64,000 bases of DNA from Escherichia coli (GTDB lineage: Bacteria; Pseudomonadota; Gammaproteobacteria; Enterobacterales; Enterobacteriaceae), in assembly GCA_025544715.1 (NCBI GenBank), contig GCA_025544715.1_4109.1, one strand, 5' to 3'. The position numbers were made by a program, and so were the translations under genes. This document shows, piece by piece, positions 31,409-64,000 of this stretch. The first letter of the stretch is position 1. Each line of letters opens with the position of its first letter. A model generated the notes under the pieces. It did not search any database. It saw nothing but the letters and a program-made list of their open reading frames with translations, and was not told the DNA's origin.

Positions 31409-32902
31409 ATGACATATAGAATGTGGAAAAAAGGTAGAACCAATGATTACAAGTTCATTGATTCTGCCATTGCTGAACAATACAACATTGGTGGAGTTGA
31501 CATGTGGCTTTATGCATATGTCGGTCCAAAACAAGTTGCTGACAACACTGACTTATCCTATGGAGGTGATTATACATCTTCAGGATCAGTTGTGTCAAGT
31601 ATTGGCGATTTAATTTTTGGTGACACACCAAACAGAAACTACAACCTTGAAGCTATCACACTTAGTTGTGTCTATCAAGTTCAAGAAGCAACTCCAGACT
31701 TGAAAATCCCAGGATTGTTCTTTAATTTCAACACTATGGACATCACAATCCATTATAATACAATGATGCAGCGTTTAGGTAGAAAAATCATGCCAGGGGA
31801 TGTGATAGAACTACCAAATTTACGTGATTTTGATGTATTGGGTAAAGATACAGGTCTAAACCGCTTCTATGTCGTCCAAGATGCATTTCGTACATCTGAG
31901 GGATACTCGGTTACGTGGCAACATCACATTTATAAACTTAGAGTTAAACCGCTAACCGACTCACCTGAGTACTCCGATTTACTCGGTAACAATAATTATC
32001 CTGATAATCCAGATGACCCTAATAATGGTAATGGAAATACCGATGATGGTTCGTCGGAAAACAGTAACTATGACAATGAAATGGATATCATGAACCGTAT
32101 CATCATGCAAGCTGATGATGAAGTACCCTACATTCATTTTACAAATGAACATTTGTATGATGATCGACCTGATACTGTAGATTTATCAAAATATATGCTT
32201 AATGGTTATGATTTCCCAGAAGAACCTGCCGATGGAATGTATTTTTTGAAAAAAACATACCCAGTACTCAAAGAGTTTGTTAATGATACATGGATTTCTG
32301 TGGAAGTCAAGCGTGGAACTATCTTTCCCAGAAAACCAATGGATGGTGACTTCTTCTTTAAAGAAAATGACGCAGATGTGACAGGTTATACGTTGTATCA
32401 ATATGATAAAAGTGCTAAAAAATGGTTAAATTGTGATGTAGAATATACTACCAGTGATGTTCCACCAGAAGATGTGGAAGATTTTTGTATTTTTTATAAA
32501 GAACCACACATTTATCAGTATAATGATGACAAGTGGGGGGAACCAAAGGTAACTTATGTCAATGAACCATTCACGTCCAATTGTGTATATGGTAATATTG
32601 ATTCCCAACAAGATTATCGTCCTAAAATTCCACCAGCACGAGGTACTGTCCCTGAAGGAAATATGTTCCCGACTGATGCAGTAGATGGTGACTATTTCTA
32701 TCGTACCGATTATACCCCAGTTACGTTATGGGAATTCAATGCAACTAAGAATTCATGGGTTATTTTTGATTATGGTGGAAGAAAACCGTGGGAAGGTGCA
32801 GACCTAGCACTTACACAGTTTGTAAATAGTGATAACAAAGTTCCATTACATGACGCAGTTAAACCTAATACTGTTTATCGCATACATAAGGACACAGAAT
32901 GA
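31409..32902 (+). CDS. Hypothetical protein (497 aa), probable virion/baseplate component
   Basis: ORF with GGAG RBS 6 nt upstream of ATG 31409 (ORF track begins at TTG 31397). Confidence 0.5.
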   Translation: MTYRMWKKGRTNDYKFIDSAIAEQYNIGGVDMWLYAYVGPKQVADNTDLSYGGDYTSSGSVVSSIGDLIFGDTPNRNYNLEAITLSCVYQVQEATPDLKIPGLFFNFNTMDITIHYNTMMQRLGRKIMPGDVIELPNLRDFDVLGKDTGLNRFYVVQDAFRTSEGYSVTWQHHIYKLRVKPLTDSPEYSDLLGNNNYPDNPDDPNNGNGNTDDGSSENSNYDNEMDIMNRIIMQADDEVPYIHFTNEHLYDDRPDTVDLSKYMLNGYDFPEEPADGMYFLKKTYPVLKEFVNDTWISVEVKRGTIFPRKPMDGDFFFKENDADVTGYTLYQYDKSAKKWLNCDVEYTTSDVPPEDVEDFCIFYKEPHIYQYNDDKWGEPKVTYVNEPFTSNCVYGNIDSQQDYRPKIPPARGTVPEGNMFPTDAVDGDYFYRTDYTPVTLWEFNATKNSWVIFDYGGRKPWEGADLALTQFVNSDNKVPLHDAVKPNTVYRIHKDTE

Positions 32903-34242
32903 AAATAGATTATTATTATGACGGTCAATTTCGCAGAGTACTGAAACATCTTATCAGAGTTTTTGGTGAATTTCAAGTACAAAATGGTGTTGATGCTAAT
33001 GGAAACCCAAAATACAAAAAGGTTCCATGTCGCTATGCCGATATTTCAAGAATGGCAGCAGCAATTATAAATGGGAATAGTGAAAATGTTCTCCCATCAG
33101 CACCTATAATGACCATAAGTGTTAATCAACTAAAGTTGGATCGTAAAAATATTCGTTCTAATGCCAACGAAACTATAGTAATGGGGTCTAACAAGACCCC
33201 TGCTATTAATGAGTACACAAAAGAACTTGACACACAATACAAAATTGTAAGACATAACCCAGTACCTTGGACTTTTACGTTTGATTTGAATATTTGGGTA
33301 ACTCAAACTCAAACTAAAATGGAATTATTCGAACAAATCTCAACTTTGTTTGCACCTAGTATACAACTTCAATTATCTGATAACCCGTTAGATTGGACAT
33401 CGCTTAGTGATGTTGAACTAATAGATTGTCAGTTTTCTACTCGTGGTTTTCCACAAGGAACTGACCCAGATTTGGATATAATGGTTTTAACATTTGAAAC
33501 GACAATATGGTTTTCTTTACCAGCTATTGTTGAAAAACCAAAATTAATTCAACAGATTACTACAAATATTAAAGGTGCTCGTGACGAATTTGATTTTGAA
33601 ATGGGAAATTATTCAGATATAATAACAGATGTTTTTACACCAAAGAACTTATGTATTAAAGTTGAAGAAATTACTAATTCCAAGTATAATTTACCTGATA
33701 CATACCAACTTACCTTGGTTAGCCAATCGCTATCTGCGGTTTCTCCCAACGGTGGAATATATTCATGGGAAAAATATCTTAAATATCTAGAACCAAATTT
33801 TGATGATAAAAAAGTAGGGATTAAATTTCAACAATCTATTGAAGAAGACAACCCACTAAAAGGTCATATAGCGTCGTATGGTGAAAATGAAGATGCCAAC
33901 AAAATTATAGTACAGCTTGATAATACAAATTATACTGTTGATTATACTATACATGGGTTTGTGCAGAAAGATTCAGTACTTTCAAATGCATTACCTGAAC
34001 AATATTATGTAAATAACAGTATACATAACATCATTTATAAAGAAACCGAAATCCCATCAAATTATTTGTTTAAAATTACAAATGATGGTGCACAATTAAT
34101 TGAACCATCTACTGTACGAAATTACATTTATAATAAAGAAGACAATGGTTATTATAGATATAATGACAAATTTAAATGGCATAAAAGTATAATGCCTGTG
34201 TATCGTCAGGGATATTGGAAAATAACTTTCACTGACAAATAA
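32899..34242 (+). CDS. Hypothetical protein (447 aa), probable virion component
   Basis: Start overlaps upstream stop (ATGA), indicating translational coupling. Confidence 0.5.
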   Translation: MKIDYYYDGQFRRVLKHLIRVFGEFQVQNGVDANGNPKYKKVPCRYADISRMAAAIINGNSENVLPSAPIMTISVNQLKLDRKNIRSNANETIVMGSNKTPAINEYTKELDTQYKIVRHNPVPWTFTFDLNIWVTQTQTKMELFEQISTLFAPSIQLQLSDNPLDWTSLSDVELIDCQFSTRGFPQGTDPDLDIMVLTFETTIWFSLPAIVEKPKLIQQITTNIKGARDEFDFEMGNYSDIITDVFTPKNLCIKVEEITNSKYNLPDTYQLTLVSQSLSAVSPNGGIYSWEKYLKYLEPNFDDKKVGIKFQQSIEEDNPLKGHIASYGENEDANKIIVQLDNTNYTVDYTIHGFVQKDSVLSNALPEQYYVNNSIHNIIYKETEIPSNYLFKITNDGAQLIEPSTVRNYIYNKEDNGYYRYNDKFKWHKSIMPVYRQGYWKITFTDK

Positions 34243-34255
34243 AGGAGGTGTTGTT

Positions 34256-34720
34256 ATGAATGAAGCGGTTGGTGCTATATTTTTATCAAAAAGTACTGGA
34301 CATATGATGTTAAACTTGCGTTCTGAAAGAAGTACCTATTCTAACAACTGGGCATTTGTTGGTGGAAAGCTTGAACATAACGAAACACCATTACAAGGTC
34401 TGATGAGAGAAATTAAAGAAGAGTTGGGCAACTCAATACCTAACATTATTGATATTATACCGTTTGATGTATTTTGTACAAAAAATGGTAAATTTAAATA
34501 TTATTCATTTGTTATTGTAGTTGAGAATGAATTTGTACCGACTTTAAATCATGAAAGCTCTGGTTATGCTTGGGTTAGAATTGGTTCTTGGCCTAAACCA
34601 TTACACCCTGGTGCTAAAAATACTTTACTTAACACAAACTTAATGAAAGATTTTTACTCACTATGGGAAAGTATACGTGAAGGTACACAGTTTGTCAACA
34701 GTTTACCATATAGATATTAA
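34256..34720 (+). CDS. Nudix hydrolase
   Basis: 154 aa; exact Nudix box GGKLEHNETPLQGLMREIKEELG (Gx5Ex7REUxEExGU); AGGAGG RBS. Confidence 0.8.
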   Translation: MNEAVGAIFLSKSTGHMMLNLRSERSTYSNNWAFVGGKLEHNETPLQGLMREIKEELGNSIPNIIDIIPFDVFCTKNGKFKYYSFVIVVENEFVPTLNHESSGYAWVRIGSWPKPLHPGAKNTLLNTNLMKDFYSLWESIREGTQFVNSLPYRY

Positions 34721-34723
34721 AAC

Positions 34724-34752
34724 AAAAAGGAGCCGTGTGGCTCCTTTTTTTA
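34724..34752. terminator. Bidirectional terminator between the Nudix gene and the minus-strand cassette
   Basis: A5 then GGAGCC-gtgt-GGCTCC then T7. Confidence 0.85.
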
Positions 34753-35850
34753 TACTCCAATAATCGGAATACCTGTAATATTTAACAACACGGATGCTTG
34801 TAGTTTAACGGATTCACCAGCAGTTAGATTACTAATGCTACCATCAACTCGAAAACCTAAATTTTTATTTGAGTTTAGAGAATTGATAACCCAATTTTCA
34901 TAATCAGCTTTAGATGTTCCATTAGGATTTGGAATAGATGGATCTACACCATTAATAACAATATTTACGTCCCAGTTTGGGCGACTACTGGTAATAACAT
35001 CTTTTATGGATTCTAATTGTGTAATCCTACGTGGGTCTGGCATTTGACTTGCCCCAACCGAACCAGGAACAAAAGTTCCTTGATTATCTACATAGAATTG
35101 CCCTTTTATAAAAAAGGTTTTTGAATTATAGGGAAGAGAAACTATCTCACCAGAAGAATCATTTACTTCTCTAATCATAATTTTTAATTCATAGAAATAG
35201 TTGCTACCAAATTCAAATACACCAGTACCATTAGTTAATGTTGTCCAGTTATTTGTATCTACTTGTGAAGTACCACCTAAGTTAAAATACGCAATTGGTT
35301 TAGTACTGTTACTTTGTGTGAACTCTATATATTTTTTACCATTATCATAGTTAATATCTAATAATGATGAATACTCTTTGTTTTCTGGTCTAGATGTTTG
35401 AATTTCACGCCATTCTTTGTTTTTCATTAACACACGAAGAGAATCACCGTTACTAGTTAATACCATACGACCCATAACACTATTTTCACCATCAGGTACT
35501 GTGTTAAAAACAGTAATCATAGGTATAGACGCCCATTCAGCTTCAGTTACAATATCAGCAGGTTGTCTAGCATTATCAACTAATGATATCAATAACTCAC
35601 CAGTACTACCAGTGTTTCTATACCAAAGTTGACCATTGACGTTACCACGTGGTGCAGATGCTGAACTGAAATTTTCAACTAAATGTAAAAAGTTTTCGTT
35701 CCATGCTTGACCATAACTTACTTTGTTTCTACCAACTAAATTTAACGGAACTGGGTTACTTCCTGGCTGGTTTGGTCCTAAAATAACATTATTTGGAATG
35801 GTAGCATAAACACTACCATTACTTCTATAAATTGTATAATTAACACTCAT
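34750..35850 (-). CDS. Hypothetical protein (366 aa)
   Basis: First gene read into the 34724-34752 bidirectional terminator; part of a three-gene minus-strand cassette. Confidence 0.5.
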   Translation of the reverse strand: MSVNYTIYRSNGSVYATIPNNVILGPNQPGSNPVPLNLVGRNKVSYGQAWNENFLHLVENFSSASAPRGNVNGQLWYRNTGSTGELLISLVDNARQPADIVTEAEWASIPMITVFNTVPDGENSVMGRMVLTSNGDSLRVLMKNKEWREIQTSRPENKEYSSLLDINYDNGKKYIEFTQSNSTKPIAYFNLGGTSQVDTNNWTTLTNGTGVFEFGSNYFYELKIMIREVNDSSGEIVSLPYNSKTFFIKGQFYVDNQGTFVPGSVGASQMPDPRRITQLESIKDVITSSRPNWDVNIVINGVDPSIPNPNGTSKADYENWVINSLNSNKNLGFRVDGSISNLTAGESVKLQASVLLNITGIPIIGV

Positions 35851-54532: not shown

Positions 54533-55957
54533 TTAACTACGTTGACGCTTTTTATCAGCTTCATATTCGTAGTGTACAGTCTCACCAAATGGTGCAACTT
54601 TATTTGGGTTACTGTGAATCACGAACAGTGTTTTACAGTAGTTTGGATCACCCCACGACTGCCACGGTTCACCATCTGTAAACATTACAAGCTGTTTAGG
54701 CTTGTAGTTGTCGTTCTTCATATGAACCCATACTGCTTCAAAGTCAGTACCACCACCACCTTTTACTGGATATTCCAGAATCTTACGTTCTTCGCCAGTT
54801 TTGTAATCCTTTACAGTATAAACTTCAGTATCAAAAGTCATGATACGAATCTTAAACTGTTTGAATTGTTTAGTGATACCTAGAACTTCACTAATGAAAT
54901 CACGAAGCATATCTTCAGAAATAGATCCAGAAGCATCTAGTGCAATCGCAATATCAATGTCATCATCTGGTTTCATCCCTGGGTAAATTGGATTACCATA
55001 GAATGAACCATTAGAACCAAAACCTGCACCCCAAGAACGACGATTCGGATTTTGATATGTTGCATCAGACTTCAACCAACTACGAAGTGTGCGTTGAAGT
55101 TTTGAACGCCAGTCAATCTTTGGTTCTTTAAAGTTGTTAATCATACGAGCGATTTCTGCTGGTGTACCACCTGCACGAGCAGCATTCATCATTGCTGTTT
55201 TGAAATCATCCATGTAATCACGTTTTTGTTTCTCACTTGAACCACCCTCTTGACCTTCTTGTGGAACGTCATGCTGGTCAATTGTAGTACCTTTTGGTTT
55301 ACCCTTACCATCTTTAATATCGCCAAAAGTACCGCGATTTTTACCTTCACCTTCGCTACCACCACTTTGTGGTTGACCTTCACCTTCACCATCTTCTTTT
55401 TGTTCTTCTTCTTCAAGAAGAATGTAAATCTCTTCTGCGGTCATACCTTCATATTTTTTATCATACAACCATGAACTTTGGATTTTTCCAATTTTCTCAC
55501 GAACGATGATTTGGTTAATGGCATAATCCGCTGCACGGTTATAACGTTGTGGATCACGCATACCACGACGAAGGAAGTGATCGTAAGCACAGTGTAGAAT
55601 TTCATGACAAATTACAGCAATAAGGTTTTCATCAGTCAAACCTTCAGTCATTTCTTTTAATTGTTCGTCTGTAACTTCAGGGTGCTTTTCACGAATAGCT
55701 TCTTCATATTCTTTCTTTTTAGATGGGTCTTGAATGCCCATTACAAATTCTACGTTGTAGAATAGATGTTTACCATCCACTGCTAGAGTACGACACCATG
55801 TATTATTAGGAACTGGACGTAAACGTGAAGCGAGTACGCCAAAGAATGGTGCAGTTAACATCAAAGATGTACGAGCCAGAACCAGACGATCTTGACATTC
55901 TTTCTGAAGTGCAGGAGATACTTCATTGAATATGGAAGTAGATTTGTTATCTGACAT
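54533..55957 (-). CDS. vWA-domain protein with N-terminal zincin-like metallopeptidase motif (DUF2201-vWA type)
   Basis: 474 aa; HEILH (HExxH) in N-terminal half; vWA MIDAS motif DASGS in C-terminal half; acidic Gly-rich linker. Confidence 0.75.
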   Translation of the reverse strand: MSDNKSTSIFNEVSPALQKECQDRLVLARTSLMLTAPFFGVLASRLRPVPNNTWCRTLAVDGKHLFYNVEFVMGIQDPSKKKEYEEAIREKHPEVTDEQLKEMTEGLTDENLIAVICHEILHCAYDHFLRRGMRDPQRYNRAADYAINQIIVREKIGKIQSSWLYDKKYEGMTAEEIYILLEEEEQKEDGEGEGQPQSGGSEGEGKNRGTFGDIKDGKGKPKGTTIDQHDVPQEGQEGGSSEKQKRDYMDDFKTAMMNAARAGGTPAEIARMINNFKEPKIDWRSKLQRTLRSWLKSDATYQNPNRRSWGAGFGSNGSFYGNPIYPGMKPDDDIDIAIALDASGSISEDMLRDFISEVLGITKQFKQFKIRIMTFDTEVYTVKDYKTGEERKILEYPVKGGGGTDFEAVWVHMKNDNYKPKQLVMFTDGEPWQSWGDPNYCKTLFVIHSNPNKVAPFGETVHYEYEADKKRQRS

Positions 55958-56031: not shown

Positions 56032-57357
56032 TTAGCCAAGAGAGCGTGCTTTACGTACAAGTTCAGAGTACTTAGCGATGAAATCTTTAAACGCTGGTAC
56101 ATCTTTAATGGAAATCGCAACCTTATGAAGCGTGATGGTACGAATTGCCAGTACTGCCAGTTCTGCTTGAGTTGCAGAGAAGTTATGGTCTAGGAAGGTG
56201 ATGAAGTTGTTACACAGTTTACCCCATTCTTCCACTGGTAGACGTTGTTCTTGCTTCTCATTGAACAGGTCGATAATTTTATAAACCAAGTTCAGAGTGA
56301 TAAAGTAGTTCGCAGAAATATCCAGCGTTGCGTCGATTTCTTTGATTTCACCAGACAGAATAGACATAGTATCTGGTAGTTTAGCAACGTTCTCAACGTA
56401 CTCAATGTATTCAGTCGCAACACCTTCACCAACACGACCAGCAATCATTGCACGGAACACTTCTTTATCAATTGTCTTATTTTTCTTGAGATCTTCGTAG
56501 CGTGCTACTGCTTCCCATGAACGTGGAGAAGTACCACCGCTGTGAGAAGGATCTTGTGGGCTAAGTGTGTTAAAGTACTTAGAACCAGTGTTGTTGATGA
56601 ACGCAACAGTTGCTGGGTTCAAACGTTTTGCAATCGCATAATCGTTAATCCAATCTTGATGATAAGGAATCATCTCAATGTGAGTCATACGGTCACGCAG
56701 TGGTGTAGCAAGAGAGAACGTTACACCGCCATCAGTTTCACGGTTACCTGCTGCAAGAATCAGTGCAGTCTTAGGTAGCTTCATCTCACCAACACAACGG
56801 TCGAGGATTAGCTGATAAGACGCTGCCTGAACAATAGGCATTGCAGAGTTAATTTCGTCAAACAGAATAACACCTTTCCAATCTTCGGACAATTTCAGTA
56901 CTTTAGGTGCAGCCCATACTACCGCTGTTTCAGCTACATAATCTTTTGCTTCGGCAAGCTCAGATTCTTTCAGAAGAGAACCGTCAGTTTTACGGAAAAG
57001 CTTCTCTGGAACTGGAATACCGCGAAGGTCACTTGGTTCAATTTGAGACAAACGGAAATCGATAAAGTTAGTATCTTGGTCGATTAGTTTTGCTTCAAAT
57101 GCAGCCAGTTCACGGCGTAGCTGATCAGCATTTTCAGGGTCAGCTTCGATTTGTTGTTTCATGAACTCGATTTTAGCTACGTTATCTTTACGCAGTGGGT
57201 AATTTTCATCAGCATATTGACGAGCGATAGCAGACTTACCGATACCTGGGCTACCCCAAATCATCAGGCTATCTTGAATCATGTCAGCCAGTGCCATTGC
57301 TTCTTTAGCTTTCTTTGGAGTCAGTTTAACGTTCAGGATATCGTTTTGAGTAGTCAT
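56032..57357 (-). CDS. MoxR/CbbQ/CobS-like AAA+ ATPase (AAA_5 type)
   Basis: 441 aa; Walker A GSPGIGKS, Walker B ILFDEINS; AGGAAA RBS; immediately upstream of the vWA gene. Confidence 0.8.
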   Translation of the reverse strand: MTTQNDILNVKLTPKKAKEAMALADMIQDSLMIWGSPGIGKSAIARQYADENYPLRKDNVAKIEFMKQQIEADPENADQLRRELAAFEAKLIDQDTNFIDFRLSQIEPSDLRGIPVPEKLFRKTDGSLLKESELAEAKDYVAETAVVWAAPKVLKLSEDWKGVILFDEINSAMPIVQAASYQLILDRCVGEMKLPKTALILAAGNRETDGGVTFSLATPLRDRMTHIEMIPYHQDWINDYAIAKRLNPATVAFINNTGSKYFNTLSPQDPSHSGGTSPRSWEAVARYEDLKKNKTIDKEVFRAMIAGRVGEGVATEYIEYVENVAKLPDTMSILSGEIKEIDATLDISANYFITLNLVYKIIDLFNEKQEQRLPVEEWGKLCNNFITFLDHNFSATQAELAVLAIRTITLHKVAISIKDVPAFKDFIAKYSELVRKARSLG

Positions 57358-57526
57358 GTATATATTTCCTTTTGTTGGATAAAATCGTTTAAGTTTCTAT
57401 TATAGCCAATCCGTGGGCAAAAGTAAAGGAACTGTGTTAAAATAATTTAACTTATCAGTTCCTTTGTTACTTCATGAATCATCCGTGTGTTTAAAAGGTA
57501 AATCTCTTTGCTGTCTTGATGTGAAC

Positions 57527-57554
57527 ATTATATCACATCGTTTCAACTTGTCAA
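57527..57554 (-). promoter_or_regulatory. Sigma70 consensus promoter (-35 TTGACA, 16 nt, -10 TATAAT), proximal copy
   Basis: Minus-strand reading: TTGACA-agttgaaacgatgtga-TATAAT; about 170 nt upstream of the AAA+ ATPase start. Confidence 0.65.
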
Positions 57555-57621
57555 TCACTTTTTTTCTTTTTTTTTTCAAACTCACATCTTGTGACGCTTG
57601 AAAACTTTATGTATGATGCTT

Positions 57622-57649
57622 ATTATATCACATCATTCTATCTTGTCAA
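57622..57649 (-). promoter_or_regulatory. Sigma70 consensus promoter (-35 TTGACA, 16 nt, -10 TATAAT), distal tandem copy
   Basis: Minus-strand reading: TTGACA-agatagaatgatgtga-TATAAT; 95 bp upstream of the proximal copy. Confidence 0.65.
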
Positions 57650-57672
57650 CATTTATTTTTAATTCATTTTTC

Positions 57673-58053
57673 TTACATATGAATAGAAAATAACTGTTTA
57701 AAATCATCACAACACAATGTTAATTCAGTTATTATCATTGCATCTGTCAGATATATGTACTGACCTTCAACATAGTAAGGTGAAGTACATATTCTGTCAA
57801 GTGATGTAAACATTATAGAACTTTTAAATTCTCTTTGCAAGGGGATTTTTGTAAATTCATAAAGATTATTTTCTTTACAAATTCCATATCCAAACTTACT
57901 AAGACGTAAACCACCGCCAGTTCTGAAATTTTCAAAAATTGACATCAGAAGCATACGGTCTGTTATTTCTGAATCTGATTCATGTACTTCCCTAACTTTG
58001 GAAAGTACATTATTTTGATATTCAGTACTGTTATGTGATGGTTCTGGAAACAT
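57673..58053 (-). CDS. Hypothetical protein (126 aa)
   Basis: ORF in the minus-strand cluster. Confidence 0.45.
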   Translation of the reverse strand: MFPEPSHNSTEYQNNVLSKVREVHESDSEITDRMLLMSIFENFRTGGGLRLSKFGYGICKENNLYEFTKIPLQREFKSSIMFTSLDRICTSPYYVEGQYIYLTDAMIITELTLCCDDFKQLFSIHM

Positions 58054-58056
58054 ATA

Positions 58057-58452
58057 TTAGTCTCCAACAAAACCTTGACGTGCAGCATAAGATGGTGCAC
58101 CAGGTTCATTATAGTGTTGTACACCTTCTTTGTCAATTGTTGGTCCCATACCTTCAGTACCAAAACAACCTGCAATGGCTTCCAACACTTCATCATCAGC
58201 AACTTCAGTACTTTCATCATTATATCGAATGTCAGACAAAATGTCACAGGCTTTTTGTAGTTTATCTACAATTTCTTTTTGGTCTTCACCAGATTTAATC
58301 TTATCAACAATGTTAATAAGACATTTGGTAATATCCTTAAGAACATCAACTGCTACAACATCGGATTCAACTTCAACTGAAAAACTTTCGTCTTCATCTC
58401 TTCCGGTAATTTCGTCTAACGCTTCAACTAGTTCACGATAATTATATTGCAT
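58057..58452 (-). CDS. Hypothetical acidic protein (131 aa)
   Basis: ORF in the minus-strand cluster; Asp/Glu-rich. Confidence 0.45.
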   Translation of the reverse strand: MQYNYRELVEALDEITGRDEDESFSVEVESDVVAVDVLKDITKCLINIVDKIKSGEDQKEIVDKLQKACDILSDIRYNDESTEVADDEVLEAIAGCFGTEGMGPTIDKEGVQHYNEPGAPSYAARQGFVGD

Positions 58453-58453
58453 A

Positions 58454-59434
58454 TTATTTGTCTCCTAAAAATTTCTTGTATTTTTCTTGGAGACTTTCAA
58501 AAATATCTTCTACTTCTTCATCAGAATCATCTTCCAAGTCAATGTTACCTTCAGGTGAATCATCTTCTTCACTTTCATTAACATTTAGTGGGTTATCTCC
58601 TAATGCAGTGCCTGGGAATTTTGGTTCAAATTTATGAACACGATTTTCGTTCCCTTCATTATCATAATACTCAGGTTCTGGACGATTGTCAAGATCTTCA
58701 TCTACAACACGTCTCCAATAAAACTGATTGCCTTTTGCAATTACAACAAAATGGTCACCTTCAACACCATTAGTCTTTAGTTGACCATCACGAACTGCAT
58801 CAGCTTCTGTTCCATATGGACCGTAATCAGTACTGTTAGATGGTTCTTCATCTTCAGAGATACTTAGATCTGGTAGAAATTGGGTATCTTTCATTTCTTT
58901 ATCGGTGGCAGGATTACCCTCTACGGAAAAATCTTCGTCTTCTTCTTCGTTAATACCAGCAAGGGATAGCATACGACTAAAATCGAATTCTTCTTCAATA
59001 ATTTCTTCTTCTTCCTCATCGTCTTCTTCAACTGATTCTAGTTGAGGTTGACCACTAAGGTCAAGAGAAAAATCTTCTTCACCTTCTACACCTGGTTCTG
59101 AAAATTCAGCATCCATACTAACTTCATCTGAGTCAGCACCAAAATCACCAACATCAGCGGAAAGATCATCAACTGCCGCTGCTAGTGGGTCTTCAACTGA
59201 AGTTTCAATTCCACCAATTTCTTCTTCAGCACCAATAGAATCTAGATCTAGTGGAGCAATAGGTGGAAGAGATGGAGTCATAGACCCCATTGATGGTACT
59301 GGAGCAGCAACAACTGGGTCTTGACGTTCAGCTTGACCAGCAAGTGCTAACATACGTGATAGTGTTTCCAAATCATCAGATTCTAAACCTGCGATATCGA
59401 TTTTAACTTGTGCTTCATTAATTTTTTTAGCCAT
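58454..59434 (-). CDS. Highly acidic hypothetical protein (326 aa) with repeated RML(A/S)LAG motif
   Basis: Long Asp/Glu runs (EEDDEEEEEIIEEE); two copies of SRMLALAG / SRMLSLAG. Confidence 0.5.
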   Translation of the reverse strand: MAKKINEAQVKIDIAGLESDDLETLSRMLALAGQAERQDPVVAAPVPSMGSMTPSLPPIAPLDLDSIGAEEEIGGIETSVEDPLAAAVDDLSADVGDFGADSDEVSMDAEFSEPGVEGEEDFSLDLSGQPQLESVEEDDEEEEEIIEEEFDFSRMLSLAGINEEEDEDFSVEGNPATDKEMKDTQFLPDLSISEDEEPSNSTDYGPYGTEADAVRDGQLKTNGVEGDHFVVIAKGNQFYWRRVVDEDLDNRPEPEYYDNEGNENRVHKFEPKFPGTALGDNPLNVNESEEDDSPEGNIDLEDDSDEEVEDIFESLQEKYKKFLGDK

Positions 59435-59456
59435 TTTAAATAAATCCTTTTAGTTA

Positions 59457-60962
59457 TCAATCATTATTATTTAATGATTTTAAAATTTGCACTGTTTCAT
59501 CCTTTTTACCTGAAAGTAAAATGTCAGCAGCAAGTAGAGAAACCTCATCACCACGAGTTAGAAGTACTGTGATTTTTTTAGCATAAGGTGACTCTTTAAT
59601 TTTAGAAGCTAATGATTGTACGTCATCACCAGCAATTGTTTCAGATTTAGTTTCTGGTTCGGAAACTTCGTCTGGTTTTTCTTCAGACTCTGGTTCTTTC
59701 TTAGGTTCTTCTTTTGATTGAATTTGATCAGTACTAGAATCATCTGGTTTTACATCATCTTTATCTTCTTCATACTTAGCAAGTAATTTAGCTGCGGTTG
59801 CTTTCGGAATAAATTTACCATCAGCACTAATGAATCGGTCACCACCAACATAAAAATATTCTTTGCCTTGTTTGGATTTAACTTTTGTTCCAATTTTCAT
59901 AGCACCAGAATTGTTATGACGGAAAATGTCACGTTGGGCTGCTCTTTCAACACTTTTAGAAGCACTCGTGTTAAGTTGCTTTTTACTTTCAATATCATAC
60001 CACAAGTTATTTTTCTTAGTGTATGTTTTTCCTTTAGAAGAAGTCATTCTATAACCATCAGGTACTGTAATACTTTCAAATTCTTCAATTTCTTCATCTG
60101 CTTCATTAATTGATTCTTTGGTTGCAAATACAGGCTGTTTAACAGGTTGTGTTGATTGTTGTGGCTTTTCACCTGATCCAAAACGCTGTTCACTGTGTTC
60201 TTGTTCACCAGTTAAGGTAGGAAAATCACTTGGGTTGTTCTTCACAAATTGCTGATATGCATTAATAATGGAATGTGCACTTTGTTCAGGAATTACAACG
60301 TTGCCATCATTATCACAAAATTCTTTACCATTCCACTCACAACGGGTATTGCCTTGAACTAATGTTGATTTGATTGGAATTAATTTATTTTTTGAAGCCA
60401 ACTGACGAGCAATACGCATACCTTCATCGGAAAGCTTACGAGTCATTGCTGGATCAACTGGTCGGCCTGATTTTATATCAACAAAACGATGATTCTTTGG
60501 AATAAATTTAAAACCACTAACTTCCATACCTGCTGGAATTGAAATATCATCAGCATATGGTGGAAGAATATAGAATTTTAGTGCATTCCATTCTTTTTGA
60601 AGTGTTTCTTTCGAAACATTATATACTCGATGGTCATCAGCCATTAATTCTGTGATGAATTCACTTTCTGTTAATAGAATTCCATCTTTTGAGTTGAAAC
60701 GGTTTTCACCAATAAATGTACACTCTTTACCTTCAACAATATATTTGTTACCAATTTTATATTCATTTGAAGCTAGATTGTGCTCGACAATCTGTTGTCG
60801 AGCACTTGCGTACATGGATGGGTATTTTCTAGGGTCTACCATTAACATATTACAGTCATTGAACCAGAATCCTTCAAGAAATACATATTTTGCACCAGTA
60901 TGTGACGTATATACATATCCATTAGGAACGGTGGTAGTTTCAGTACTGAAAAAATTATCCAT
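59457..60962 (-). CDS. Hypothetical protein (501 aa) with internal duplication and acidic C-terminal region
   Basis: Two similar modules (VPNGYVYTSHTGAKY / VPDGYRMTSSKGKTY; YKIGNKYIVEGKE...DGILL / MKIGTKVKSKQGKE...DGKFI). Confidence 0.55.
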   Translation of the reverse strand: MDNFFSTETTTVPNGYVYTSHTGAKYVFLEGFWFNDCNMLMVDPRKYPSMYASARQQIVEHNLASNEYKIGNKYIVEGKECTFIGENRFNSKDGILLTESEFITELMADDHRVYNVSKETLQKEWNALKFYILPPYADDISIPAGMEVSGFKFIPKNHRFVDIKSGRPVDPAMTRKLSDEGMRIARQLASKNKLIPIKSTLVQGNTRCEWNGKEFCDNDGNVVIPEQSAHSIINAYQQFVKNNPSDFPTLTGEQEHSEQRFGSGEKPQQSTQPVKQPVFATKESINEADEEIEEFESITVPDGYRMTSSKGKTYTKKNNLWYDIESKKQLNTSASKSVERAAQRDIFRHNNSGAMKIGTKVKSKQGKEYFYVGGDRFISADGKFIPKATAAKLLAKYEEDKDDVKPDDSSTDQIQSKEEPKKEPESEEKPDEVSEPETKSETIAGDDVQSLASKIKESPYAKKITVLLTRGDEVSLLAADILLSGKKDETVQILKSLNNND

Positions 60963-60975
60963 GTGTTGATTCTCC

Positions 60976-61518
60976 TTAAGAAAGCATACGTAACAGTTGG
61001 TCGCGTTGCTCTGGACTTAATTTTTGTAGAGCATCAGGGATACTGGAACCTTGTGCTTTTGGTTGTTCTTGTTGTGCTGGTTGCTCTGGTGCATTTGTTT
61101 GTGACTGTTGTGGTTCGGAACGTTCTTCTTCCCCTTGTTGGTCACGGTAATCATTCATTAAATCACGAGCCGCATTTAATAGAGCACTACCTACATCTTT
61201 TGGTGTAAAAGAACGACGAGGATTGTTCCCTAAATGTTTAATATCAAGATTGTTACCTTTAAAAAACTGTGCAACATCAGCGTAAGGCACTGATGGTTGA
61301 GCTTTACCATATTTACGTCCAACATATCGTTTAAACTCGGCCCACAATCGGTTAGCTTCAGCACCAACCTCTTGTGCACCTTGTTCTATCTGTCCACTAC
61401 CAAAAAAGCCTTTTACTTTTCCTTTTGCACTATCAACTGCACTTTGTGAACGACTATAAGGACGAGCTTCATTTAACTCATTGTCTTCATAATCTAACAT
61501 TTCATTAAGTATACTCAT
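60976..61518 (-). CDS. Hypothetical protein (180 aa)
   Basis: ORF; Gln/Pro/Glu-rich C-terminal tail ending LLRMLS. Confidence 0.5.
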   Translation of the reverse strand: MSILNEMLDYEDNELNEARPYSRSQSAVDSAKGKVKGFFGSGQIEQGAQEVGAEANRLWAEFKRYVGRKYGKAQPSVPYADVAQFFKGNNLDIKHLGNNPRRSFTPKDVGSALLNAARDLMNDYRDQQGEEERSEPQQSQTNAPEQPAQQEQPKAQGSSIPDALQKLSPEQRDQLLRMLS

Positions 61519-61521
61519 GTG

Positions 61522-62058
61522 TTAATCCTTTTTACCAAAACCAGCACTCATATATTGAGAGTATTTATTGTCTTTTTTAGATGCTTCAATTGCATCATCA
61601 ACTGCTGTTTCAGCACGTTGTTGACCAGCTAAATCATAACTGTCTTCTGGTTTACCAAAATCTACACCAATAATTGGCTCATCAACATCATCAAAATCGA
61701 TATCATCTTCTAGGTCAGTCATTTCAATTTGACGAGGTTCATCTTTACTGCGTACACGAATCAGTGCTTCGGTCATACTTAGTAAATTACCGATTTCATA
61801 CATTAGTACGTTTGATTGAACACCACGATGACATTTAAAATCAAACATCCAAATTTCACCACAATCTAATTCATAGAAATCTAATGGTTTTTCCATAAAA
61901 ATTGTTTTCTTAAGTGCACCAATTTCAAATGCATCATAGCGGTCCATTAGTCGCTGTGTTACTTTACTAAGTTGTTCCGGTGATGGTTCAACTGCAAACT
62001 TAACTCGGTATTCATAAACTGGTTTTTTTTCAGTTAGGATTTGTTGTAATCTATTCAT
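61522..62058 (-). CDS. Hypothetical protein (178 aa)
   Basis: ORF in the minus-strand cluster. Confidence 0.5.
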   Translation of the reverse strand: MNRLQQILTEKKPVYEYRVKFAVEPSPEQLSKVTQRLMDRYDAFEIGALKKTIFMEKPLDFYELDCGEIWMFDFKCHRGVQSNVLMYEIGNLLSMTEALIRVRSKDEPRQIEMTDLEDDIDFDDVDEPIIGVDFGKPEDSYDLAGQQRAETAVDDAIEASKKDNKYSQYMSAGFGKKD

Positions 62059-62085
62059 TTTAATAACTCCATAAGGTCGTTTAAG

Positions 62086-64000
<1,915 letters not shown>

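Follow-up and report, generated by a model that had tools for sequence, protein, structure and literature searches.

In phage T4, the prohead protease gp21 cuts after L/I-X-E, and the internal proteins reach the prohead core by means of N-terminal peptides of 10-19 residues which end in such a site (PMC9026906). Inner-body proteins are abundant and located inside the head, and they are trimmed after Glu by a protease related to gp21, the motif in phage phiKZ being S/A-x-E (PMC9026906). Bubblegrams of phages 121Q and phAPEC6 showed a phiKZ-like inner body, which is protein mass inside the DNA, and homologues of the phiKZ inner-body proteins were reported missing in the 121Q-type group. Here we describe a polyacidic protein of 326 amino acids (aa) with a repeated RML[AS]LAG motif, which is encoded together with a 501-aa and a 180-aa protein at 58454-61518 of a stretch of 64,000 nucleotides (nt) from contig GCA_025544715.1_4109.1, called the window below. 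The motif is repeated, conserved and found in one protein family of 121Q-type jumbo phages, and the protein family is present in virions. As a tentative explanation, the protein may be a head-internal protein of the T4 type.

The region 58000-62100 of the window showed 95.5-95.7% DNA identity with Escherichia phages 121Q, PBECO4, phAPEC6, JP4, Sharanji and others, and on this ground the window is assigned to an Asteriusvirus-type (RaK2-like) jumbo myophage of about 350 kb. The three proteins of the span are orthologues of 121Q gp560 (326 aa), gp559 (501 aa) and gp558 (180 aa), and the 121Q annotation lists gp557-561 as structural proteins.

The initial annotation had pointed out long Asp/Glu runs and two copies of SRML(A/S)LAG in the 326-aa protein, and both are read directly from the open reading frame (ORF); the runs include, for example, EEDDEEEEEIIEEE. 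RML[AS]LAG had exactly two matches in the six-frame translation of the whole window, both in this ORF, at aa 27-33 (59336-59356) and at aa 154-160 (58955-58975), within SRMLALAG at aa 26-33 and SRMLSLAG at aa 153-160. The enrichment over shuffled sequences expected by the initial annotation was also found. With a statistic which is free of post-hoc choice (a non-acidic 7-mer of any kind that recurs with no more than one mismatch), such a repeat arose in 11 of 3000 shuffles of the 326-aa protein, so it is beyond chance.

A search of 5.8 billion proteins gave 102 homologues of the 326-aa protein. About 100 homologues conserve both motif copies, even at identities as low as about 30%, and relatives carry two to four copies, such as three in the orthologue of Vibrio phage 2.275.O. 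The general form of the motif is Phi-x-x-Phi-x-R-M-x-x-L-A-G, which makes an amphipathic helix. The consensus of copy 1, D[LF]ETLSRMLALAGQAE, is almost invariant even where the overall identity is 35-45%, and L31, A32, G33 and A35 are invariant in an alignment of 60 sequences. Copy 2 appears in the homologues as DDFDMxRMSSLAG[IL]xES. AlphaFold2, run with the 60-sequence alignment, placed a helix on each copy with a best predicted local distance difference test (pLDDT) score of about 77, and both helices were isolated and not packed against a folded domain. At the DNA level, 24 of 51 nt are identical between the two motif regions. The idea that the copies stem from a recent duplication of DNA was therefore rejected, and their likeness is maintained at the protein level.

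The initial annotation had also suggested that the motif may be a signal shared between different proteins, which is not supported. We scanned the complete 121Q genome (348.5 kb) in six frames (5012 segments), and the window as well, with hidden Markov models (HMMs) made from copy 1, copy 2 and both. The HMM of copy 1 alone recovered copy 2 in 121Q with an independent E-value of 1e-6, while the next best match had E=16. No match outside gp560 was found with the three HMMs in the 121Q six frames or in the window, the next best E being at least 5. A proteome-wide motif was therefore rejected, as only gp560 scores in the 121Q genome, and the motif is private to one family.

When aa 1-45 were compared exhaustively by phmmer with 1.84 billion representative proteins, only 25 proteins were returned. 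Some of them retain the N-terminal block together with extra internal copies, such as DEIAESLRIAGVQLDE, while their C-terminal domain differs. The gene neighbourhood of these divergent relatives is different too, next to a T4 gp15-like tail-completion gene. The varied copy number and the different C-terminal domain suggest that the motif acts as a module within a small superfamily.

The 326-aa protein matched phrog_15988, "virion structural protein", over aa 1-326 against the whole profile (E 3.6e-141), and has 99.4% identity with 121Q gp560, annotated as "structural protein". A literature search on the motif strings found no paper. The protein is thus an ordinary member of a known virion family verified by mass spectrometry (MS), and its short linear motif appears undescribed. 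In phAPEC6, the orthologue gp267c was detected by MS in purified virions (35.96 kDa, one unique peptide, 4.9% coverage). Its gene encodes 326 aa with 35,963 Da, and two residues distinguish the product from the window protein. Coverage of 4.9% is equal to 16 aa, and the sole tryptic peptide of 15-17 residues in gp267c, with at most two missed cleavages allowed, is IDIAGLESDDLETLSR (aa 12-27, 4.91% of the protein). So the detected peptide can only be IDIAGLESDDLETLSR. CBB_213 was also detected in virions by MS with five peptides (18.9% coverage), and so was the RaK2 orthologue.

Asp plus Glu (D+E) make up 29.4% of the 326-aa protein and its isoelectric point (pI) is 4.05; 121Q gp560 is the second most acidic 121Q protein among those of at least 100 aa. 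The initial annotation had spoken of highly acidic proteins in the span. This is right for the 326-aa protein, while the 501-aa protein (pI 5.45) and the 180-aa protein (pI 5.35) do not belong there. The AlphaFold2 model of the 326-aa protein had a mean pLDDT of 59.8, with 134 residues below 50 and a predicted template modelling score (pTM) of 0.27. According to this model the protein is mostly disordered. The only confidently folded part is a small beta-alpha-beta-beta domain, in which G205, P206, G223, F229 and W240 are invariant in the 60-sequence alignment. No Pfam match was obtained for the protein, profile searches of the PDB gave nothing significant, and Foldseek found nothing below E=1.9 in the PDB and orthologues only in BFVD.

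In some metagenomic homologues (P0017, P0025, P0088), the folded domain, GPxxSExxA...G.F.I...G.YW, occurs in two or three tandem copies. It means that this domain is a module which has been duplicated independently of the helix motif.

A strongly acidic virion protein could also be a decoy: a DNA-mimicking or polyanionic protein which is packaged in the head, leaves it together with the DNA on ejection and neutralises a host DNA-binding defence or nucleoid protein. The extreme net negative charge and the presence in virions agree with it, and it is compatible with a location inside the head, as for T4 IPI, which acts against restriction, is packaged and has its targeting peptide cleaved (PMC9026906). 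The acidic parts, on the other side, are disordered by prediction and poorly conserved in sequence and length, unlike the folded Ocr and ArdA, and no match to a solved structure or to Pfam was found. In addition, the gene is a strictly conserved member of a core module in phages with hosts from Vibrio to Xanthomonas, which is atypical of fast-evolving anti-defence genes. We regard the decoy as very improbable. The DNA mimic of the initial annotation, in the sense of Ocr or ArdA, is not supported, because the acidic stretches are predicted to be disordered and show neither fold nor sequence match to solved structures.

Two kinds of signature may connect the 326-aa protein with proteolytic processing in the head. 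The first stands behind the internal motif. [LIVM]-x-E was found within 0-2 residues after the internal motif in 68 of 78 distinct instances (87%), compared with a rate of 5.5% when every Gly of these proteins is taken as the starting point. The divergent subfamily has a constant spacing, AG-Phi-x-[LI]-x-E, with LTE, LDE, LNE and INE as examples.

The second is at the N-terminus. The protein starts with MAKKINE/A (here and below, a slash follows the Glu of the site), and we defined the signature as [LIVM]xE[AS] within the first 14 aa. It was present in 17 of 551 genes of 121Q, including those of the scaffold, the major capsid protein (MCP), gp599, gp600, gp556, gp560 and gp561. When the head-core cluster and the gp560 operon were taken together (13 genes), seven carried it (hypergeometric P = 1e-8), and three of seven in the gp560 operon alone (P = 4e-4 to 8e-4). 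Across diverse phages it was found in gp556 (8/8), gp560 (8/8) and gp561 (7/8). In the window, the gp556-type protein (184 aa, 62086-62640, minus strand) starts with MKSKPQIDE/A and the gp561-type protein (131 aa, 58057-58452, minus strand) with MQYNYRELVE/A. As T4 controls, gp22 (IAE/A), gp24 (LRE/S), gp67 (LIE/A) and gp21 (LIE) had the signature. N-terminal kinship to T4 gp22 (IAEAQKID) or gp24 (MAKINE) was considered as well, and was dropped since it was not significant with the family N-terminal HMM.

Phage 121Q encodes gp21-, gp22- and gp23-like proteins, and gp601, annotated as a T4 gp21-like protease, adjoins the gp22- and gp23-like genes; by colinearity with 121Q, the gp21-like protease gene lies just outside the window. 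In phage CBB, the protein CBB_255 has 31% identity with T4 gp21 (E 2e-10; PMC5259590). The 121Q MCP has MLTE/S at residue 43, which resembles FLTE/A of T4 and fits the reported change from 42.2 to 37 kDa.

Acidic core proteins are known in T4, where gp67 has 44% D+E. In 121Q, gp600 (282 aa; 32879-33727 of a 121Q piece, outside the window) is encoded between the portal and prohead protease genes and starts with MANLKLLQE/A. In acidity it ranks third among the 121Q proteins, and it is likely an analogue of the T4 core proteins gp67 and gp68.

We tentatively explain the 326-aa protein, by analogy and with somewhat less than even confidence, as a T4-style head-internal protein of the prohead-core/internal-protein type, the motif helices of which dock in the prohead and the flanking Glu sites of which are cut by the gp21-like protease. 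MxKKINE/A would then be an N-terminal signature of the kind cut by gp21-type proteases and used in T4 for capsid targeting. The motif helices would be docking elements which hold the acidic chain on a partner (core, scaffold or shell) in the assembling prohead, and the [L/I/V/M]-x-E after each internal motif would be a trimming site for the gp21-like protease.

Several points weigh against this explanation. The gene is in an operon with tail-tube and gp4-like head-completion genes, outside the cluster of portal, protease, scaffold and MCP. The peptide deduced for phAPEC6 indicates that the N-terminal region up to motif 1 is kept in mature virions, hence that no propeptide is lost there; this aa 12-27 peptide is fully tryptic and so is uninformative about cleavage after Glu. 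The triplet after copy 1, Q-A-E, does not fit L/I-x-E. Phi-x-E is common in this Glu-rich protein and is conserved at seven positions, so it discriminates poorly, and conserved Phi-x-E alone was rejected as evidence of cleavage. The N-terminal signature test was devised after the sequences had been seen. Finally, no sequence homology to the T4 internal proteins, gp22, gp67 or gp68 was detected with Pfam and the N-terminal HMM, and the best hit of the family N-terminal HMM in the T4 head-gene region had E 0.36 and was on a non-coding frame.

Some of these points fit an explanation by structure only, in which the motif has no signalling role: the helices would be conserved structural elements which, for example, let the protein self-associate or pack against the small domain or the C-terminal helix, and the flanking Glu would reflect acidic composition. 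The motif is private to one family, Phi-x-E occurs often in the protein and many of its positions are conserved, and the N-terminal region is retained in virions, all of which speaks for such a role. In the AlphaFold2 model, however, the helices stand apart from the folded domain (pTM 0.27). Moreover, between two and four copies occur, the motif travels with different C-terminal domains, and the [LIVM]-x-E enrichment (87% versus 5.5%) is far above composition. We think this explanation is unlikely.

The docking or processing signal of the initial annotation survives as a hypothesis, based on conserved helices in a disordered chain and on the [LIVM]-x-E association, for one family only; the word shared has to be removed from it. 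As a whole, the earlier observation was partly confirmed and its interpretation partly supported. The positions of the features are given in Table 1.

Table 1. Features of the 326-aa protein, of the two proteins encoded beside it and of the surrounding genes (positions in the window).
Feature	Position	Strand	Remarks
326-aa polyacidic virion protein	58454-59434	-	Orthologue of 121Q gp560, phAPEC6 gp267c, CBB_213, GAP32_207, RaK2 ORF050
N-terminal MAKKINE/A, aa 1-8	59411-59434	-	[LIVM]-x-E-[AS] signature, T4 gp21 protease/capsid-targeting sequence (CTS) type; M1, E7, A8 invariant in 60 homologues
Motif copy 1, DLETLSRMLALAGQAE, aa 21-36	59327-59374	-	Near-invariant in ~90 homologues; AlphaFold2 helix aa 19-35
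Disordered acidic linker (predicted), aa 37-147	58994-59326	-	pLDDT mostly <50; length and sequence variable across the alignment
Motif copy 2, EEFDFSRMLSLAGINEE, aa 148-164, then I-N-E site	58943-58993	-	Conserved; AlphaFold2 helix aa 152-158
Small beta-alpha-beta-beta domain (predicted), aa 203-242	58709-58828	-	pLDDT >90; sole confidently folded part
Conserved C-terminal helix (predicted), aa 308-323, VEDIFESLQEKYKKFL	58466-58513	-	AlphaFold2 pLDDT ~86; conserved in both alignments
501-aa virion protein, 121Q gp559 orthologue	59457-60962	-	phrog_16305, E 7e-227; between the two proteins flagged by the initial annotation
180-aa virion protein, 121Q gp558 orthologue	60976-61518	-	phrog_16152; AlphaFold2 helical core aa 44-128, linker, terminal helix
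C-terminal tethered helix of 180-aa protein (predicted), aa 160-180, ...LSPEQRDQLLRMLS	60979-61041	-	AlphaFold2 helices aa 160-165 and 169-179 after disordered 129-158
Upstream genes, same operon: gp557 type (178 aa), gp556 type (184 aa), T4 gp4-like head completion (142 aa)	61522-63099	-	Gene order conserved in 8 phages
Downstream genes, same operon: 131-aa acidic virion protein (gp561 type) and 126-aa protein (gp562 type)	57673-58452	-	ORFs and profile matches
MoxR-like AAA+ ATPase	56032-57357	-	Pfam; directly downstream of the operon in all relatives
DUF2201_N putative metallopeptidase and vWA protein	54533-55957	-	Pfam; synteny in all relatives

All genes of 57673-63764 are on the minus strand with intergenic gaps of 1-30 nt, so they are read as one operon. 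The annotated order in 121Q is tail sheath, three tail-tube paralogues, T4 gp4-like head completion, gp556-gp562, MoxR-like ATPase and "HNH endonuclease". The order of three tail-tube genes, gp4-like gene, gp556-562, MoxR ATPase and DUF2201_N-vWA gene is kept in 121Q, GAP32, K64-1, Munch, XaC1, XbC2, Hallingskeid and Vibrio phage 2.275.O. The gp561 encoded next to gp560 is the sixth most acidic protein of 121Q. The label "HNH endonuclease", which RefSeq relatives of the DUF2201_N-vWA gene carry, is not supported. A gap of about 315 nt (57358-57672) between the end of the gp562-type gene and the start of the ATPase gene is the sole sizeable intergenic space in the block, and it may hold a terminator or promoter.

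This gene order is the basis of the main rival explanation, in which the 326-aa protein is a client or adaptor of the MoxR AAA+/metallopeptidase-vWA pair, gp556-gp562 build a neck, tail-associated or other virion substructure, and the helices and the acidic chain are recognised or cut by the vWA (MIDAS) domain or the zincin-like peptidase and not by the prohead protease. The pair has been described for group 2.2 jumbo phages, and was proposed to take part in virion assembly, where structural proteins would be processed by peptidolysis (Iyer et al., PMC7824862). Strict synteny from the operon to the MoxR ATPase and to the DUF2201_N-vWA gene in eight phages speaks for it, as do the putative metallopeptidase and vWA domains in the downstream protein, the detection of the MoxR-type ATPase itself in phAPEC6 virions (gp265c) and the T4 gp15-like tail-completion gene which adjoins a divergent relative of the 326-aa protein. 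Nothing links the motif to vWA or zincin recognition, however, and with the gap before the ATPase gene co-transcription is not evident. The [LIVM]-x-E association and the signature common with head-core genes point to the serine prohead protease instead. On balance we consider a client of the MoxR pair rather unlikely, though a rival to be taken seriously, and we keep the T4-style head-internal protein as the tentative explanation.

The 180-aa protein ends in LLRMLS, which the initial annotation had related to the motif. The ending is there, while the kinship is marginal as judged from sequence. In about 70 homologues the family ends with LSxx[ED]RxxLL[RK][LM][LI]S at the very end. When the gp560 and gp558 families were compared by hhalign, the best local alignment paired aa 9-30 of gp560 with aa 159-180 of gp558, at P/E = 0.02 and a probability of 2%. 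The motif HMMs did not match the 180-aa C-terminus, and the HMM of this C-terminus did not match the motif. LLRMLS was therefore not accepted as a third copy, because it had no HMM cross-match and only P = 0.02 by hhalign. The 180-aa protein had no Pfam or PDB sequence match, and by fold it came closest to EF-hand proteins (troponin C, calmodulin), with a non-significant E of ~0.2. PHROGs and RefSeq name it "Hsp70 heat shock protein", which seems to be an error handed on between annotations.

Three further likenesses were seen by eye or in alignments of other proteins. The gp22-like scaffold 121Q gp602 (34438-35553 of a 121Q piece, outside the window) ends with DMAFLKELDVLSGINKK, which resembles copy 2, FDFSRMLSLAGINEE, by eye. 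Its C-terminus (FLKELDVLSGINKK) was rejected as a motif copy, as this likeness by eye was not scored by the motif HMMs. The 178-aa virion protein (61522-62058, minus strand) has a stretch [EL][LI][AG]GQxRA[ED] near its C-terminus, conserved in eight phages and resembling the LAGQAE end of motif 1; the motif HMM scored it at noise level. The 501-aa protein had no motif HMM match. Two pairs of segments within it, VPNGYVYTSHTGAKYVF...W / VPDGYRMTSSKGKTYTK...W and KIGNKYIVEGKECTFIGENRFNSKDG / KIGTKVKSKQGKEYFYVGGDRFISADG, make up an internal duplication as judged by eye. Relatives conserve its C-terminal SLLAADILLSGK..E, and the versions in K64-1 and Munch have only 328 aa.

A wider proposal is that the conserved gp556-gp562 operon, with the polyacidic protein among its products, encodes the components of the inner body seen in 121Q and phAPEC6, possibly together with the MoxR/vWA-metallopeptidase pair, and that the RMLxLAG helices with [L/I]-x-E form a new multivalent internal capsid-targeting and processing signal, which loads the acidic chain in the head and then releases it. 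We hold this to be improbable.

If the T4-style explanation is true, RaK2/121Q-like jumbo phages would bring a disordered polyacidic protein into the head by means of repeated docking helices, each with its own protease site. It would extend the T4 capsid-targeting principle, which is used for packaging foreign proteins into heads, and these phages would gain a concrete candidate for their inner-body or internal proteins. The conserved 16-residue motif and the N-terminal MxKKINE/A are candidate tags for packaging cargo into jumbo-phage capsids. Even if the explanation is wrong, it is still of use to know that the motif is private to its family and that the labels "Hsp70" and "HNH endonuclease" of two neighbours are unsupported.

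Compared with known systems, the locus shares with the MoxR AAA+/vWA systems of Acidianus two-tailed virus and of group 2.2 jumbo phages the pair itself, which directly adjoins the operon in all relatives. The 326-aa protein is neither MoxR nor vWA, and its role as a client is conjecture.

Ocr, ArdA and Arn are compact folds which show their charge in a DNA-like pattern. The 326-aa protein is like them in its strong negative charge and different in that its acidic regions are disordered by prediction (pLDDT <50), with no fold or sequence match.

With the inner-body proteins of phiKZ and 201phi2-1 the likeness is one of the phages, namely the phiKZ-like bubblegram signal in 121Q and phAPEC6. 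The differences are the S/A-x-E site of phiKZ and the homology, of which none was detected for the 326-aa protein with Pfam and PHROG, with orthologues only in BFVD.

Scaffolds (T4 gp22, and P22 gp8 with its C-terminal coat-binding helix-turn-helix) and encapsulin cargo-loading peptides show that short helical or peptide elements on flexible chains can dock cargo or scaffold on the inner side of an HK97-fold shell, and the docking role proposed for the RMLxLAG helices is similar. The initial annotation had called the acidic proteins scaffold-like, which holds only loosely. There is a separate gp22-like scaffold (121Q gp602), to which the 326-aa protein has no sequence relation, and the 326-aa protein has no long coiled coil and stays in the mature virion. 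The analogy with the T4 core and internal proteins fits better.

The T4 proteins with a CTS cut by gp21, namely gp67, gp68, IPI-III and Alt, are like the 326-aa protein in the short N-terminal peptide which ends in [L/I]-x-E-[A/S]. Extreme acidity (gp67), the gp21-, gp22- and gp23-like genes in 121Q and the presence of the 326-aa protein in the virion add to this likeness. The differences are that there is no sequence homology, that the 326-aa gene is outside the head cluster and that the N-terminal region is retained in virions. For the 326-aa protein, which is known from genes and whole-virion MS, we infer cleavage and head location. The T4 targeting peptide is N-terminal only, and the 326-aa protein adds to it repeated internal helix motifs, each with a putative site.

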